Positions 387 to 5,814 of a DNA stretch of 5,814 nt are shown here, piece after piece. The notes beneath the pieces are model-generated. The model was not told the DNA's origin and searched no databases. It saw only the letters and a list, made by a program, of their open reading frames with translations. How positions within the stretch are numbered: position 1 is the first letter of the stretch; every line of letters begins with the position of its first letter. Position numbers and translations under genes: made by a program. The stretch lies in the IMG/VR virus record IMGVR_UViG_3300045988_000128, positions 1 to 5,814 of that record; one strand, given 5' to 3'. The DNA is from a virus.

Positions 387-440
387 TATTAGATCAAGCG
401 CCGTATATTATATAACTTGTTGTAGCCGTAGTAGTAGAGA

Positions 441-616
441 CTGTGAAAAAGTTGAAAACAATAAAGATTATCCGTTATCACGTTATTTTTAAGAAAAATT
501 ACTAGTTGAAAGTTTTATTGAAAACTTGTTGAAATGTTGAAAGTTAGTCAAAATGACGAAAAGCATTGTGCAACATTTTGTGGAAAACCTGTTGAAACTG
601 TTGAAACTGTTGAAAA
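441..616 (+). repeat. Iteron-like array of (C)TGTTGAAA(C) direct repeats, ending in three perfect tandem 9-mers CTGTTGAAA at 589..615.
   Basis: TTGAAA cores at 452-457, 506-511, 518-523, 529-534, 537-542, 592-597, 601-606 and 610-615, plus degenerate copies ctgtgaaaaa (441-450) and tgtggaaaac (579-588). Tandem units are 589-597, 598-606 and 607-615. Confidence 0.85.
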
Positions 617-709: not shown

Positions 710-738
710 TTGACAAGCAGAAAAAAGAACGCTATAAT
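710..738 (+). promoter_or_regulatory. Sigma70/sigma-A-type promoter with perfect consensus hexamers, driving the zinc-ribbon, peptidase, small-ORF, VP3 and VP1 gene block.
   Basis: TTGACA at 710-715, a 17-nt spacer and TATAAT at 733-738. The predicted TSS is near 745-746. It is followed by RBS AAGGTGGAG (749-757) and ATG at 764. Confidence 0.7.
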
Positions 739-951: not shown

Positions 952-1344
952 ATGAGCATCGAATGCTATATCATGGACACAGACGCAAACGAAAATGTTG
1001 GAAAATACTTTAAGGTAAAAGAGTTTGCTTGCAAAGACGGAAGTCAAATTGTATTCATTGACGACTACCTATACACCATTCTGGACATCCTAAGAAACAA
1101 GCTGGGAAAACCGGTCATCATCACCAGCGGATACAGAACGCCGGAGTGGAACGCAAAATGCGGAGGAGCAAAATATAGCTACCATATGCGCGGTATGGCT
1201 GCGGACATCCGGGTTAATGGCATGAAACCCAAAGAACTTGCTAACAAACTGAATGGAATTGTCCCGGAAGAATGTGGCATTATCGTATACAAAAGCTGGG
1301 TGCATTTTGATGTGCGCAAAGCAAAATACAGAAAGGGGATATAA
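952..1344 (+). CDS. Peptidase M15 (M15_3/VanY-like zinc D,D- or L,D-peptidase), a putative endolysin. It is 130 aa.
   Basis: ATG 952 lies 5 nt after AAGGAG (941-946). Family-defining motifs are present: F.VKEFAC, SGYRTPEWNAKCGGAKYSYH, the Zn-ligand pattern HMRGMAAD (H-x6-D) and the final His in WVHFDV. The tracked upstream extension (859 TTG) overlaps the previous gene and is rejected. Confidence 0.85.
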   Translation: MSIECYIMDTDANENVGKYFKVKEFACKDGSQIVFIDDYLYTILDILRNKLGKPVIITSGYRTPEWNAKCGGAKYSYHMRGMAADIRVNGMKPKELANKLNGIVPEECGIIVYKSWVHFDVRKAKYRKGI

Positions 1345-1814: not shown

Positions 1815-2054
1815 ATGAAACACAACTACTACGGAATCTGGGACAGTGTGGCAAAGTGCTACGCATGGGTCGGTGAAAGCAAGAACGATGCAACCTTTGC
1901 ACGTATGTGCAATGTGATGGAAAAGGACGAAAAAACCTTCATTGGGCAGAGTCCGCAGGACTACACCGGCTTCAAGTTGGCAATCTTTGAAGACGAAAAC
2001 GGAACGTTTACGAACGACACGGAAAAAGTATGGGAGGGCAAGCCGAATGAATAA
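1815..2054 (+). CDS. Hypothetical protein (79 aa).
   Basis: ATG 1815 lies 7 nt after AAGGAG (1802-1807). The protein is MKHNYYGIWDSVAKCYAWVGESKNDATFARMC.... Its stop overlaps the next start (ATGAATAA). The pattern resembles a small conserved microvirus ORF, but that is recollection only. Confidence 0.5.
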   Translation: MKHNYYGIWDSVAKCYAWVGESKNDATFARMCNVMEKDEKTFIGQSPQDYTGFKLAIFEDENGTFTNDTEKVWEGKPNE

Positions 2055-2454
2055 ACGATACGAGGAAGGGCGAGAGCCCTTCTTTTCGAATACAGGCGAG
2101 AACGAACGAAAGCAGTACGTCTGGGCAAAAGACGAAAACGGCAAAGAATACCTTCAAGAGACAGCGCCTATCGACATTCAGGCTGAAATCGAAAGCTATG
2201 CAGACGAGTGCGATATTAAAAACATCGTGCGGAAAGCAAGTTTCGACCCGGAATTTCTGAAGAACCTGTCACAAGGCGCATTAACCACAGAGGAAACACC
2301 GCTCGTAGACATCACGGAATTCCCGCAGAATATCCACGAGTATCACCAGATGATAGCAACGGCACAAGCAAAAGCAATGCAGCTGGCAAAGCTACAGGAG
2401 ATGGCAAAAACAGAGCCTAAACCGAAAACCGAAGCAAAGGAGGAAGAACAGTGA
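2047..2454 (+). CDS. VP3: Putative internal scaffolding protein (VP3-like), 135 aa, with an acidic Lys/Glu-rich C-terminus.
   Basis: ATG 2047 follows GGGAGGG (2031-2037). It sits immediately upstream of VP1 and overlaps it. The motif ...YADECDIKNIVRKASF... resembles the conserved D-I-N-x-I block of gokushovirus VP3 scaffold proteins. The tracked start 1942 lies inside the previous gene and is rejected. Confidence 0.6.
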   Translation: MNKRYEEGREPFFSNTGENERKQYVWAKDENGKEYLQETAPIDIQAEIESYADECDIKNIVRKASFDPEFLKNLSQGALTTEETPLVDITEFPQNIHEYHQMIATAQAKAMQLAKLQEMAKTEPKPKTEAKEEEQ

Positions 2455-4145
2455 ACAGAAACAACGAAAGACACTTTCTGAATGTGCCACAGATGCACAC
2501 AAGCAGAACGCGTTTCAACCGTGACCAGACGATTTTGACCACGTTCGACAGCGGCAAGCTTATCCCGTTTTTCGTGGACGAAGTGCTACCGGGCGACACT
2601 TTCCAAGTCGACACAAGCGCTATCATCCGAATGACCACGCCAAAGTATCCGGTCATGGATGATGCATTCATAGACTTCTACTACTTCTATTGTCCAAACA
2701 GAATCTTGTATGATGACTTCAAGTATTTCATGGGAGAAGTAGAAGACAAGCCATGGGTACCGAGCAAAGAATACAAAATGCCGCAAATAGTATGTTTTGG
2801 AAATGAAGCAGAACCACAGCCACTCGAAAAAAGCATTCTGGACTATATGGGAGTGCCAACAAAAATCAAAAAACAATTTAGCATAAACGCACTGCCAGTG
2901 CGAGCCTATGTAAGAATCTGGAATGAATACTTCAGAGATGAAAACGTAGACAACAAAGCAACGCTAGTAACGGCTGGATTAGATCAAGCATACAGAGACA
3001 CAAACAAAGATGAAGACCTAGACAAAATCCTTGAAGAAGCACACGAAGGCGGACGGTGCCTACCTGTAAACAAGTTCCATGACTACTTCACAAGCTGTCT
3101 GCCATATCCGCAAAGAGGGCCGGAAATTTCATTACCGTTAACAGGAAATGCAGCGGTAAACCTGTTTACAGACCAAGAGCTAACAGAAAAAATGTCAACG
3201 GGTATCGATGGCGAAATCTACCTGAACAGCACAGTAACAGGAAACAACACATCGGTACCGAGGATGTTAAACTGGCCAACCGCGTCAAACACCTCACATC
3301 CGGTTCTAGTAAACGGAGCACCAAGCGATACAGACGCAAGCAAGTACCGCGCAGGATTCTTAGGTGCAGACCTGGCAAGTGTAACCGCAACAACAATCAA
3401 CGACTTGCGAAATGCTGTTGCAGTACAGCAGTATTACGAAGCACTAGCGCGTGGTGGCAGCAGATACCGCGAACAGGTACAGTCACTGTGGAACGTCACA
3501 ATCAGCGACAAAACGGTACAGATTCCTGAATATTTGGGCGGTGGACGCTATCACGTCAACATGAATCAGATTATCCAGACCAGCGGACAGCAGAGCAACA
3601 CAGATACACCCATCGGCGAAACTGGCGCAATGTCAGTAACGCCGGTAAATGAAAGCAGTTTCACAAAATCGTTCGAAGAGCACGGCTTTGTAATCGGTGT
3701 GATGTGTATTCGTCATAACCACAGCTACCAGCAGGGACTTGAACGTTTCTGGAGCAGAAAAGACAGGCTCGACTACTACGTGCCGCAGTTTGCAAACCTT
3801 GGCGAACAGCCTGTAAAGAAAAAGGAAATCATGCTGACCGGTGACGCATCAGACGAAGAAACTTTCGGCTATCAGGAAGCATGGGCAGACTACCGGATGA
3901 AACCAAACCGTGTAAGCGGACTTATGAGAAGCAACGCAACGGGAACGCTGGATTTCTGGCATTATGCAGACAACTATTCAGCAGTGCCGACACTGTCACA
4001 AGGCTGGATGGTAGAAGGAAAGAGCGAAATTGCAAGAACGCTCATCGTTCAAGACGAACCGCAGTTCTTCGGAGCAATCCGAGTAGCAAACAAAACTACC
4101 CGCTGTATGCCGTTGTACAGTGTACCGGGGCTGAACAAATTGTAA
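2451..4145 (+). CDS. VP1: Major capsid protein VP1 (phiX174 F-protein homologue), 564 aa.
   Basis: GTG start 2451 lies 6 nt after AAGGAGGA (2437-2444), in a GTGA overlap with the VP3 stop. The N-terminus MNRNNERHFLNVPQ...RTRFNRDQTILTTFDSGKLIPFFVDEVLPGDTF matches the highly conserved microvirus VP1 N-terminal signature. A long uninterrupted ORF ends at TAA 4143-4145. An alternative start at ATG 2493 would lose the conserved N-terminus. Confidence 0.92.
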   Translation: MNRNNERHFLNVPQMHTSRTRFNRDQTILTTFDSGKLIPFFVDEVLPGDTFQVDTSAIIRMTTPKYPVMDDAFIDFYYFYCPNRILYDDFKYFMGEVEDKPWVPSKEYKMPQIVCFGNEAEPQPLEKSILDYMGVPTKIKKQFSINALPVRAYVRIWNEYFRDENVDNKATLVTAGLDQAYRDTNKDEDLDKILEEAHEGGRCLPVNKFHDYFTSCLPYPQRGPEISLPLTGNAAVNLFTDQELTEKMSTGIDGEIYLNSTVTGNNTSVPRMLNWPTASNTSHPVLVNGAPSDTDASKYRAGFLGADLASVTATTINDLRNAVAVQQYYEALARGGSRYREQVQSLWNVTISDKTVQIPEYLGGGRYHVNMNQIIQTSGQQSNTDTPIGETGAMSVTPVNESSFTKSFEEHGFVIGVMCIRHNHSYQQGLERFWSRKDRLDYYVPQFANLGEQPVKKKEIMLTGDASDEETFGYQEAWADYRMKPNRVSGLMRSNATGTLDFWHYADNYSAVPTLSQGWMVEGKSEIARTLIVQDEPQFFGAIRVANKTTRCMPLYSVPGLNKL

Positions 4146-4184: not shown

Positions 4185-5078
4185 ATGTCAATACTAGGAG
4201 CAATCGGAGCAGCCGGAAAAGCAGTAGGTGGATGGCTTGCAAGTAATCCACAAGTAGTAACAAGCGCACTGACGTTAGCAGGGAAAGGACTATCAAGCCA
4301 ATTCGGGCAAACGTCAGACAGCCAAAGCAGCGGATGGAATCAAAGCCAAAGCCAAGGCGCTGGCACAAGCTCGTCAAGCAGCGAGGGCGGCACAAACGAC
4401 AAGCAAATCATGGAATACCTAGATAAGTTCTATAGTTGGCAAGGCGGGCAGAACGCTTTCCAAAGCAAAACAAACCGGCAAAATATGCTTATGCAGATGG
4501 GCTACAACACGCTAGGAGCAATCCAGCAAGGCGTATATAACGCAATTGAACGAAACACGGCAATGCAGTACAACAGCGCAGAAGCACTTGCAAACAGGAA
4601 CTTTCAAGAGCGCATGAGCAGTACGGCATACCAAAGAGCTGTAGAAGATATGCGGAAAGCCGGACTTAACCCTATCCTGGCATACGCAAACGGCGGTGCA
4701 AGCACACCGGGCGGCTCAGGAGCAACAATCACAGGTGCAAGTATGGGTATGCCATCAGCAAGCGCACTGGGCGTATCTACAATGAATGGAAATGTGCCAA
4801 ACAGTTATTACAGCCGGTCAGAAAGTCAGGCACAATGGTATCAGCTTGCAGAAGCCGTGGGAAGTCAGCTAAGCACAAGCCACAGCAGCCCAACAGCACT
4901 TGTAAACGACCTGTTAAAAACATACAAAGCCATGGAAAAGACGGAAGATACCGTACCGGGAGCAGCCGGGGGCGGTGGACGAAACAAACCGAAAACAGGA
5001 GAAAGCAGAGAAATGAAGCCACAAAACAAAACGGGAAATTATGGAGAAAAAAGAAAGCCAGGTGATTATTTAAGGTGA
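4185..5078 (+). CDS. VP2: Minor capsid / DNA pilot protein VP2 (phiX174 H-like), 297 aa.
   Basis: It is the first codon after the in-frame stop at 4182-4184. The N-terminus is glycine-rich and hydrophobic (MSILGAIGAAGKAVGGWLAS). There is a Ser/Gln/Gly low-complexity linker and the conserved block NFQERMSSTAYQRAVEDMRKAGLNPILAY typical of gokushovirus-type VP2. The SD (AAAGGAGGA 4147-4155) lies upstream of the terminator hairpin. Confidence 0.85.
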   Translation: MSILGAIGAAGKAVGGWLASNPQVVTSALTLAGKGLSSQFGQTSDSQSSGWNQSQSQGAGTSSSSSEGGTNDKQIMEYLDKFYSWQGGQNAFQSKTNRQNMLMQMGYNTLGAIQQGVYNAIERNTAMQYNSAEALANRNFQERMSSTAYQRAVEDMRKAGLNPILAYANGGASTPGGSGATITGASMGMPSASALGVSTMNGNVPNSYYSRSESQAQWYQLAEAVGSQLSTSHSSPTALVNDLLKTYKAMEKTEDTVPGAAGGGGRNKPKTGESREMKPQNKTGNYGEKRKPGDYLR

Positions 5079-5814
5079 GTTGTTACAAGCCACTAATTAG
5101 GCTGTACAATCCCGAAAACAAAGAAATAAGCGGGCGGGTGTATTCACTCGCCCGCTTTTCAGAATTATCGGGGAGACAGCTAAAATATGAAGATTTGATG
5201 TACAGAAAAGACATCATGTTGATACCATGCGGGCAATGTATAGGATGCAGAATCAGGCAACGTGAAGACTGGACAACACGCATAGAATTAGAAGCTAGAG
5301 ACTATCCGAAAGAAGAAGTATGGTTTATTACACTAACCTATGATGACGACCATGTACCGGGAATGATAGTTAAGACAGGCGAAATAATGCGAAAGGTACA
5401 ATACGTCTGGAAACCGGGTGAAGAGCGTCCTGAAAGCGTCCAAACGTTACTGTATACTGACGTTCAGAAGTTCTTAAAACGTCTCAGAAAGGCTTACAGG
5501 GGCAAATTACGCTATTTCGTAGCAGGAGAATACGGAGAGCAAACAGCAAGACCGCATTACCACATGATACTGTACGGATGGCAACCGACAGACCTAGAGA
5601 ACCTATACAAGATATACCACAACGGATACTATACAAGCAAATGGCTGGCAGAACTATGGGGCATGGGTCAAATACAGATAGCACAAGCAGTACCAGAAAC
5701 ATATAGATACGTTGCAGGGTATGTAACCAAAAAAATGTATGAAATAGACGGAAAGAAGGGAAATGAATATTATGAACTAGGACAGCAAAAACCGTTCGCT
5801 TGTATGAGCCTTAA
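5075..5814 (+). CDS. VP4: Replication initiation protein Rep (VP4-like, HUH endonuclease), N-terminal part. It is truncated by window linearisation and continues at 1..335.
   Basis: GTG 5075 lies 9 nt after AGGTGA (5060-5065), in a GTGA overlap with the VP2 stop (TGA 5076-5078). The in-frame stop at 5063-5065 excludes any earlier start. The translation is MSCYKPLIRLYNPENK...PCGQCIGCRIRQ...WFITLTYDD (motif 1)...ARPHYHMILYG (HUH motif 2)...YRYVAGYVTKK (catalytic Tyr motif 3). The alternative ATG 5198 would delete the conserved N-terminus. Confidence 0.9.
   Translation, partial: MSCYKPLIRLYNPENKEISGRVYSLARFSELSGRQLKYEDLMYRKDIMLIPCGQCIGCRIRQREDWTTRIELEARDYPKEEVWFITLTYDDDHVPGMIVKTGEIMRKVQYVWKPGEERPESVQTLLYTDVQKFLKRLRKAYRGKLRYFVAGEYGEQTARPHYHMILYGWQPTDLENLYKIYHNGYYTSKWLAELWGMGQIQIAQAVPETYRYVAGYVTKKMYEIDGKKGNEYYELGQQKPFACMSL
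5760..5814. repeat. Direct terminal repeat copy 2 (identical to 1..55).
   Basis: Exact 55-nt identity with the window start, verified base by base. Confidence 0.95.

Follow-up and report, generated by a model that had tools for sequence, protein, structure and literature searches.

A repeat array in the main intergenic region of a gokushovirus genome was analysed, and we concluded that it very probably consists of host-type DnaA boxes. Judged from sequence, the array and the adjoining positions 404-459 would together reproduce the basal unwinding system (BUS) of the chromosomal origins of Oscillospirales (Ruminococcus-like Clostridia), that is, the arrangement of DnaA boxes, spacer, DnaA-trios and AT-rich element. 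The identity of the motif with that of host oriCs, the BUS architecture, the selective conservation and the strand-independence were observed directly. The module is oriC-like and not an oriC, as it does not lie on a chromosome beside dnaA/dnaN. It is a known kind of module in an unexpected new carrier. In a literature search that covered few subscription journals, neither DnaA boxes in Microviridae or gokushoviruses nor DnaA-trios in a phage were found.

Genome organization

The window, by which we mean the whole 5,814-nt stretch of DNA that was analysed, was a complete circular gokushovirus genome of 5759 nt (about 5.76 kb). Its ends, positions 1-55 and 5760-5814, were identical over 55 nt and represented an assembly overlap, and the genome was therefore circular with a length of 5759 nt. 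All genes were on the plus strand (Table 1). The main intergenic region, 336-763, held the array, the hairpin and the promoter. The oriC-like module was thus flanked by VP4 and the first gene downstream of it. The promoter was followed, ahead of the zinc-ribbon gene, by a strong Shine-Dalgarno sequence, AAAGGTGGAG, at 750-763, and relatives with a different first gene had an equivalent strong promoter in the same place. The M15 endolysin was present in 70 of 120 element carriers. In the 5' part of VP4 (5125-5210), a sub-threshold match to the Rfam family Termite-leu was seen (29 bits, compared to a gathering score of 51), which was probably due to chance.

Table 1. Positions of the genes, promoter, hairpin and module parts in the window
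Feature	Position	Strand	Remarks
VP4/Rep, 339 aa	5075-5814 joined to 56-335, across the junction	+	intact HUH motif HYHMILY; tyrosine motif YVAGYVTKK
Hairpin	354-386	gene orientation	just 3' of the VP4 stop codon
AT-only tract TATATTATATAA, candidate DNA-unwinding element	404-415		far end of the trio run; 12 of 12 A/T
DnaA-trio run TTG TTG TAG CCG TAG TAG TAG	417-437	+	one frame; 5'-TAG-3' equals 3'-GAT-5'
Spacer AGAC, 4 nt	438-441		GGGAG, GGCA or AGGC in relatives; GGGGG in hosts
S1	442-450	+	TGTGAAAAA; TGTGGAAAA, AGTGGAAAA or TGTTGAAAT in relatives; box closest to the trios
S2	450-458	+	AGTTGAAAA; in tandem with S1, 8-nt step
Variable spacer	459-503		70% column conservation; reverse-oriented TTATCCGTT at 469-477
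S3	504-512	+	AGTTGAAAG
S4	516-524	+	TATTGAAAA
S5	527-535	+	TGTTGAAAT
S6	535-543	+	TGTTGAAAG
Inter-cluster spacer	544-578		87% column conservation; includes TTGTGCAACATTTTG
S7	579-587	+	TGTGGAAAA; other strand fits TTWTNCACA; best box of the third cluster
S8-S10	590-616	+	TGTTGAAAC TGTTGAAAC TGTTGAAAA, head to tail; slot starts 590, 599 and 608
Promoter, perfect TTGACA-17-TATAAT	710-738		~95 nt downstream of the array; only perfect promoter
Zinc-ribbon protein, 61 aa	764-949	+	first gene 3' of the array
M15 peptidase/endolysin	952-1344	+	
VP5	1815-2054	+	
Scaffold protein	2047-2454	+	
VP1	2451-4145	+	Phage_F, 1e-134
VP2	4185-5078	+	

The repeat array

GTTGAAA occurred nine times in the window, and seven of these copies were on the plus strand at 451-615. 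Shuffled sequences held 1.1 copies on average, and none of 200 shuffles reached nine. TTGAAA was found in eight copies (452-615). Tandem Repeats Finder returned CTGTTGAAA in 3.0 perfect copies at 589-615 and TGTTGAAA in two copies at 527-542. The first-pass annotation had described a dense, non-random array with eight exact TTGAAA copies and three perfect tandem 9-mers, and all of this was reproduced. Read in register, the array consisted of ten 9-mer slots, TGT(T/G)GAAAN, at 442-616, all on the plus strand; the slots S1, S3 and S4 of the window genome were slightly degenerate. The functional unit began at ~404, earlier than the position 441 given in the annotation, which added the AT tract and the TAG triplet run. 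Two further sequences were observed within the array. The reverse-oriented TTATCCGTT in the variable spacer reads TTATCCTTG in a large clade of relatives, and TTGTGCAACATTTTG (565-579) is a strongly conserved non-box spacer. The DnaA-box model accounts for neither of them.

We considered it barely conceivable that the array controls transcription, either as an operator bound by the 61-aa zinc-ribbon protein or by some other regulator of the phage, or as a promoter-associated element acting on 710-738; stacked -35 boxes, an UP element and curved DNA were the variants considered. The zinc-ribbon protein is encoded by the first gene after the array, and TGTTGAAA resembles TTGTTGACA of the real -35 at 710. 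However, the zinc-ribbon gene was nearly unique to the window genome; tblastn detected a homolog in 1 of 120 element carriers, and the annotation's suspicion that its product was the binder was not borne out. The first gene was a different one in L001-L003, and the array of relatives was inverted or at a variable distance from the promoter. Stacked sigma-70 promoters, which the annotation had also dismissed, were rejected: no promoter-like site, defined as a -35 with a -10 located 16-18 nt downstream, was found within 441-616, and the repeats lacked -10 partners.

Host origins with the same boxes

When genomes were scanned for three tandem TGTTGAAA units, 76 loci were obtained. Many of them, such as those in Moraxella, Acinetobacter and Colwellia, were 9-bp repeats in coding sequence without relation to the array and were set aside. 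In contigs of Ruminococcus, Oscillospiraceae and Clostridia, dense non-coding clusters of 20-40 boxes were located between dnaA and dnaN (L087, L093, L094, L116, L124, L128 and L133), with rnpA, yidC, jag and recF nearby. Pfam searches on the flanking genes gave Bac_DnaA (~1e-65), Bac_DnaA_C and three DNA_pol3_beta domains. The commonest 8-mer across the host oriC regions was TGTTGAAA. In six host oriCs, which like the other host genomes had been found with a phage-derived pattern and were thus subject to ascertainment bias, 185 boxes were counted, with 144 of the form TGTTGAAA(A/G/C), 31 of TGTGGAAA and 0 of the canonical TGTGGATAA.

The similarity extended beyond single boxes. The unit of TGTGGAAAA and three tandem TGTTGAAA, which occupied 579-616 in the phage, recurred in the oriCs of L087, L093, L116 and L128, and the 20 nt at 578-597 were identical to oriC sequence of L128 and L116. 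At the dnaN-proximal end, the host oriC showed an AT-rich stretch, (TAG)4-6, GGGGG and then tandem TGTTGAAAC TGTTGAAAA. Its phage counterpart was the AT tract, TTG TTG TAG CCG TAG TAG TAG, AGAC and TGTGAAAAA GTTGAAAA. Phage relatives were identical to the host core at 43 of 49 and 56 of 69 positions.

The sequence TGTTGAAAA is two mismatches from TGTGGATAA, the canonical DnaA box, which reads TTATCCACA on the other strand. We regard TGTTGAAAA as a putative DnaA box because of where it lies within oriCs of metagenome-assembled genomes. Helix 5 of the DnaA of the candidate hosts was RDHSTIVY, compared to RDHTTVIH in B. subtilis, and this involved E. coli positions 435, 438 and 439. These positions are base-contacting and are likely determinants of altered box specificity (PMC5043019). 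The TGTTGAAA/TGTGGAAA boxes together with the RDHSTIVY helix look like a lineage-specific DnaA-box variant of Oscillospirales.

Similar TGTTGAAA clusters were present in two Chthonomonadaceae genomes (L126 and L141), and the host call was therefore made mainly from the near-identical unwinding core. Among the groups found, the full core with boxes was matched only by Ruminococcus/Oscillospiraceae origins. These results suggested that the phage host is a Ruminococcus-like bacterium.

Some host loci were arranged differently. The oriC of L124 (1184-2170, Ruminococcus) carried (TTG)5 beside the boxes instead of (TAG)n. Such TTG trios have T as the middle base and fall off the published NAN rule, and the TTG TTG of the phage at 417-422 was in frame with the TAG run. 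DnaA-box clusters away from dnaA were also seen in Ruminococcus and Ruminiclostridium (L082 ~520-1110, L091 ~2680-3270 and L136 ~2870-2950), one of them upstream of mraZ. They may represent secondary clusters of DnaA boxes or have a regulatory role.

The putative unwinding core

The incC BUS of B. subtilis comprises DnaA-boxes #6/#7, a GC spacer, DnaA-trios and an AT-rich element (PMC6669920, PMC8287927). As a general definition, a BUS has a box, an optional second box, a spacer no longer than 16 bp and three or more NAN trios with the consensus 3'-GAT-5'; the box lies next to the trios with at most two mismatches from the species consensus, and the distance between box and trios averages 4 bp, or 13 bp when counted from the distal box (PMC8287927). 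The core of the phage was compared to this definition. S1 differed from TGTGGATAA at 1-2 positions and from the host oriC box TGT(T/G)GAAAA at 0-1, and it read TGTGGAAAA in 16 relatives. S2 followed as a second tandem box in the same orientation. The AGAC spacer left 4 nt between the trios and S1, and about 12-13 nt separated the trios from S2. The trios were TAG TAG TAG at 429-437, with an in-frame TAG at 423-425, and they were on the same strand and the same side as those of the host dnaA-dnaN origins. The AT-rich element was located beyond the trios.

The AT tract had only 12 nt in the window and was longer in relatives, for example ~28 nt in MG945136. An AT-rich stretch was present at the matching place in relatives and host oriCs. 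All relatives showed the same order, namely an AT-rich tract, AACTTGTTG, TAG triplets, a short and mostly GC-rich spacer and the first two boxes.

Conservation among gokushoviruses

In a megablast search against GenBank phages, several gokushoviruses matched only positions 404-697 of the window, with 79-88% identity, and the element was often the sole megablast-detectable stretch between gokushovirus genomes. A more sensitive search detected it in 47 GenBank gut gokushovirus records, and the most widely shared part was 404-459. When IMG/VR was queried with a 20-mer from the array, about 61-62 contigs were obtained, 61 of them of microvirus size, and a 21-nt pattern from 414-434 gave at least 119 contigs. 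In all, more than 120 gut gokushoviruses carried the module. The proteins of the carriers were 39-90% (VP1) and 37-94% (VP4) identical to those of the window.

Column conservation in 65 aligned relatives was 93% for the boxes and 95% for the trio run (414-437), compared to 77% for the inter-box spacers and 70% for the middle spacer. The annotation had proposed to look for the repeats in related phages, and the position, sequence and number of the array were conserved in them. In the slots S1, S4 and S10 of the relatives, TGTTGAAAA, TGTGGAAAA and TGTGGATAA interchanged; at S4, the counts were 27 for TGTTGAAAA, 24 for TGTGGATAA and 6 for TGTGGAAAA. Across 647 slot instances, position 4 of the 9-mer was occupied by T in 69%, by G in 30% and by C in 0%. 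Spo0A 0A-boxes, which have a TGTCGAA core, were rejected because C was never found at this position.

The shortest version was that of KT264799 (5179-nt genome), which had the AT tract, trios, spacer and two boxes only and is comparable in this respect to incC of B. subtilis. The classical gokushoviruses SpV4 and phiMH2K had no box cluster and no trio run, which meant that the module is not essential to the subfamily. A distant blastn search of PLSDB plasmids gave no match, and Rfam at a permissive threshold gave nothing at the array.

Inversion of the module

In MG945447, MG945388 and MG945867, the whole module, from the AT tract to the last box, was inverted relative to the genes. The orientation of the VP4-proximal hairpin, the GC-rich block and the promoter was unchanged in these three genomes. 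Among the IMG/VR carriers listed, the module was in the VP1 orientation in 95 and in the opposite orientation in 13 (13 of 108, about 12%), and the inverted genomes belonged to at least three VP1-identity classes. In 106 of the carriers listed, the loop motif of the hairpin, CTATCAAG, was in the gene orientation, and in none was it in the opposite one. Since the module was inverted in about 12% of the genomes, it acts as double-stranded DNA, independently of the strand.

The inversion was also relevant to the idea of a strand-specific element, which could be a complementary-strand origin in the viral single-stranded DNA, a structured RNA or the ORF at 553-681 (…LLKLLKLLKTRKRAR…). We gave this almost no weight. 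The need of single-stranded DNA phages for a complementary-strand origin speaks for it, as does the open frame across the tandem repeats, which was kept in many relatives. However, such an element does not fit the 13 inverted modules among the 108 genomes listed. The array itself was unpaired when folded as single-stranded DNA (the intergenic region overall had z = -2.6), and TTTCAAC was found 0 times in 65 relatives, so there were no reverse-oriented boxes with which duplex boxes could form. A structured RNA had no match in Rfam. As for coding, the 42-aa ORF lacked a Shine-Dalgarno sequence, had its ATG in 24 of 65 relatives, was variable in length and matched no family in Pfam or PHROG, and the same repeats are non-coding in the host origins. 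The annotation had called the array non-coding; this holds overall, apart from this poorly supported ORF across the tandem repeats.

The CTATCAAG loop with a stem of at least 7 bp was found in 104 of 121 carriers listed, with 27 different stem arms, which indicated that the stem co-varies. This hairpin could be a terminator, or the site that VP4 recognises or nicks. In reverse complement, its loop reads CTTGATAG, which resembles the phiX CTTG/ATA core; it is, however, on the non-coding strand. Between the array and the promoter, a GC-rich block (617-700) held two copies of CGCGCAAG and a hairpin, GGCGC-TAAA-GCGCC, at 673-686. In MT135268 the block was ~88% identical, and MG945447 had it as well. 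Because it stayed fixed while the DnaA module inverted, it is a conserved element in its own right. Many relatives had alternating CG/CA palindromes, CGCGCACGCGCGAAACGCGCACGC, upstream of the module, and the window was without them.

The annotation had interpreted the repeats as Rep-binding iterons next to structured DNA, in the manner of CRESS viruses and rolling-circle plasmids. The repeats would then be bound by the phage Rep (VP4) and would mark a rolling-circle origin, which we now consider very improbable. The array does follow VP4 closely within the main intergenic region and is near the conserved hairpin, and AACTTG at 414-419 recalls the nick-site core of phiX174. However, the repeat is the commonest 8-mer of host oriCs, and the boxes were constant among carriers whose VP4 was 37-94% identical, with no co-variation. 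Genomes with the array inverted relative to both VP4 and the hairpin make up about 12%, and SpV4 and phiMH2K have homologous Reps but not the repeats. The phiX174 origin, CAACTTGATATTAATAAC, had no match at up to three mismatches, and matches to its 9-mer core were no more frequent than expected by chance. The analogy to bacterial oriC was thus the right one. The annotation's proposal of a candidate ori stands in part: a link to replication initiation is most likely, and the Rep origin is not retained as the repeats are host oriC boxes. AACTTG was also tried as a VP4 nick site, and this was considered unlikely; the motif shares the frame of the trios and changes orientation together with the module, and TTG trios are used in L124.

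Proposed mechanism

From these comparisons we infer DnaA binding, DNA melting and a replication step that benefits from them. After the incoming single strand has been converted to the double-stranded replicative form, host DnaA-ATP would occupy the ten same-oriented boxes on it. DnaA at S1/S2 would oligomerise onto the TAG trios, by which the AT tract at 404-415 would be melted. The distal clusters S3-S6 and S7-S10 would raise the local DnaA concentration in the way of the upstream boxes of B. subtilis incC. In incC, the trio-proximal boxes are orientation-critical, and the upstream boxes stimulate flexibly at a distance (PMC6669920). The open complex might then start or assist phage DNA replication in one of two ways. 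Host helicase could be loaded, and the replicative form would be copied like a minichromosome. Alternatively, the opening could give VP4 (HUH Rep) and helicase access to single-stranded DNA, which would be similar to DnaA assisting plasmid Rep proteins (PMC10797057).

The boxes might bind host DnaA as a sink or sensor and not as an origin, by titration that would halt host initiation or by coupling phage gene expression or replication to the DnaA-ATP level, without opening. We judged this to be unlikely. Clusters of DnaA-titrating boxes are known from chromosomes, such as datA and the DBCs of B. subtilis. Ten boxes per genome multiplied by the copy number of the replicative form would be a strong sink, and a strong promoter is located ~95 nt downstream. 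However, the distance and orientation to the promoter varied among relatives, and the strict host-like orientation of boxes to trios would be left unaccounted for. A titration locus is expected to hold boxes without an unwinding apparatus. Here, the box cluster was present, but so were the trios and the AT tract, and titration may occur as a side-effect. The trios, spacer and AT tract were the best-conserved parts (95%) and, with two boxes, the sole parts of the minimal version, and a sink does not account for them. Because the trios and AT tract were retained in KT264799, DNA opening was favoured over simple DnaA titration.

Several points count against our preferred reading of an oriC-like unwinding module, among them the two mismatches between TGTTGAAAA and TGTGGATAA, the short AT tract, the slight degeneracy of S1, S3 and S4, the ascertainment of the host genomes and the absence of the module from SpV4 and phiMH2K. 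In addition, VP4 is intact, with both the HUH motif and YVAGYVTKK, and the need for DnaA is thus left without explanation. To our knowledge, phiX174-type replication needs the phage Rep and a host helicase and is not DnaA-dependent. As a tentative proposal, which we would sooner doubt than accept, the lineage may have captured or convergently rebuilt a host origin core and become a dual-mode replicon, in which DnaA fires the replicative form and the HUH Rep only spins off progeny strands. DnaA-fired theta replication or plasmid-like carriage would then be tied to the host cell cycle.

Implications

Microviruses serve as the textbook example of phages that replicate by means of a rolling-circle nuclease of their own. 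The occurrence of a conserved and complete host-origin unwinding module in more than 100 gut gokushoviruses implies that they depend on host DnaA, or manipulate it, in a hitherto unrecognised way. Three subjects become testable in this way. The first is the start of gokushovirus replication, for which the annotation had stated that there was no defined origin. The second is the identity of gokushovirus hosts, through boxes and trios. The third is TGTTGAAAA as a lineage-specific DnaA box linked to the RDHSTIVY recognition-helix variant. If the dual-mode replicon were true, it would be the first virus-borne DnaA-trio unwinding system, and it would provide a sequence-based host assignment (Oscillospirales) for a large and so far hostless group of gut gokushoviruses. 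Origin mimicry could also serve as a general host-prediction signal for small phages.

Comparison with known systems

The phage shares a Rep of the HUH superfamily and repeats in the main intergenic region with phiX174, which has a 30-bp origin in gene A, and with CRESS viruses and rolling-circle plasmids. In contrast to these systems, its repeats were of the host type, did not co-vary with Rep and inverted independently of the hairpin. In the ABC primosome described by Masai and Arai, a hairpin DnaA box on single-stranded DNA reportedly directs the loading of DnaB, DnaC and primase. The use of DnaA by a single-stranded DNA template is common to both. However, a hairpin-formed duplex box is needed in the primosome, whereas the phage has no inverted boxes and its module works in either strand orientation. 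Dense DnaA boxes outside oriC are also found in E. coli datA and the DnaA-box clusters of B. subtilis; we know of no trios or unwinding element in datA-type titration loci.

The theta origins of plasmids and phages (RK2 oriV, pSC101, F and P1 oriR) are similar in that a replicon with its own initiator also has host DnaA boxes (PMC10797057). They differ in having a few canonical boxes beside Rep iterons, in contrast to the full trio-containing core and rolling-circle Rep found here. According to a 2024 review, there is no evidence that DnaA engages the single-stranded unwinding element of plasmid origins (PMC10797057). Canonical BUS-like modules were also observed in large dsDNA viral contigs of IMG/VR (L276, L258, L247, L283, L257 and L275; 9-161 kb). 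They consisted of an AT-rich stretch, (TAG)3-5, GGGG, TGTGGATAA TGTGGATAA and more boxes. Their surroundings were those of phages, with RecT, a capsid gene or an ExoX-like gene in the neighbourhood, and they were not adjacent to dnaA/dnaN. Mimicry of origins may be common among phages.

The closest likeness was to the bacterial BUS. Several differences from bacterial oriCs were seen: the phage module is in a 5.76-kb ssDNA phage with its own HUH Rep and not beside dnaA/dnaN, its boxes all face one way, its AT tract is short, and a phage-specific AACTTGTTG lies ahead of the TAG run. The order and relative orientation of the AT tract, the 3'-GAT-5' trios, the short spacer and the two tandem boxes were the same as in the incC BUS of B. 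subtilis, as was the presence of further distal box clusters. With the oriCs of Oscillospirales, the core of the phage relatives was near-identical in sequence.
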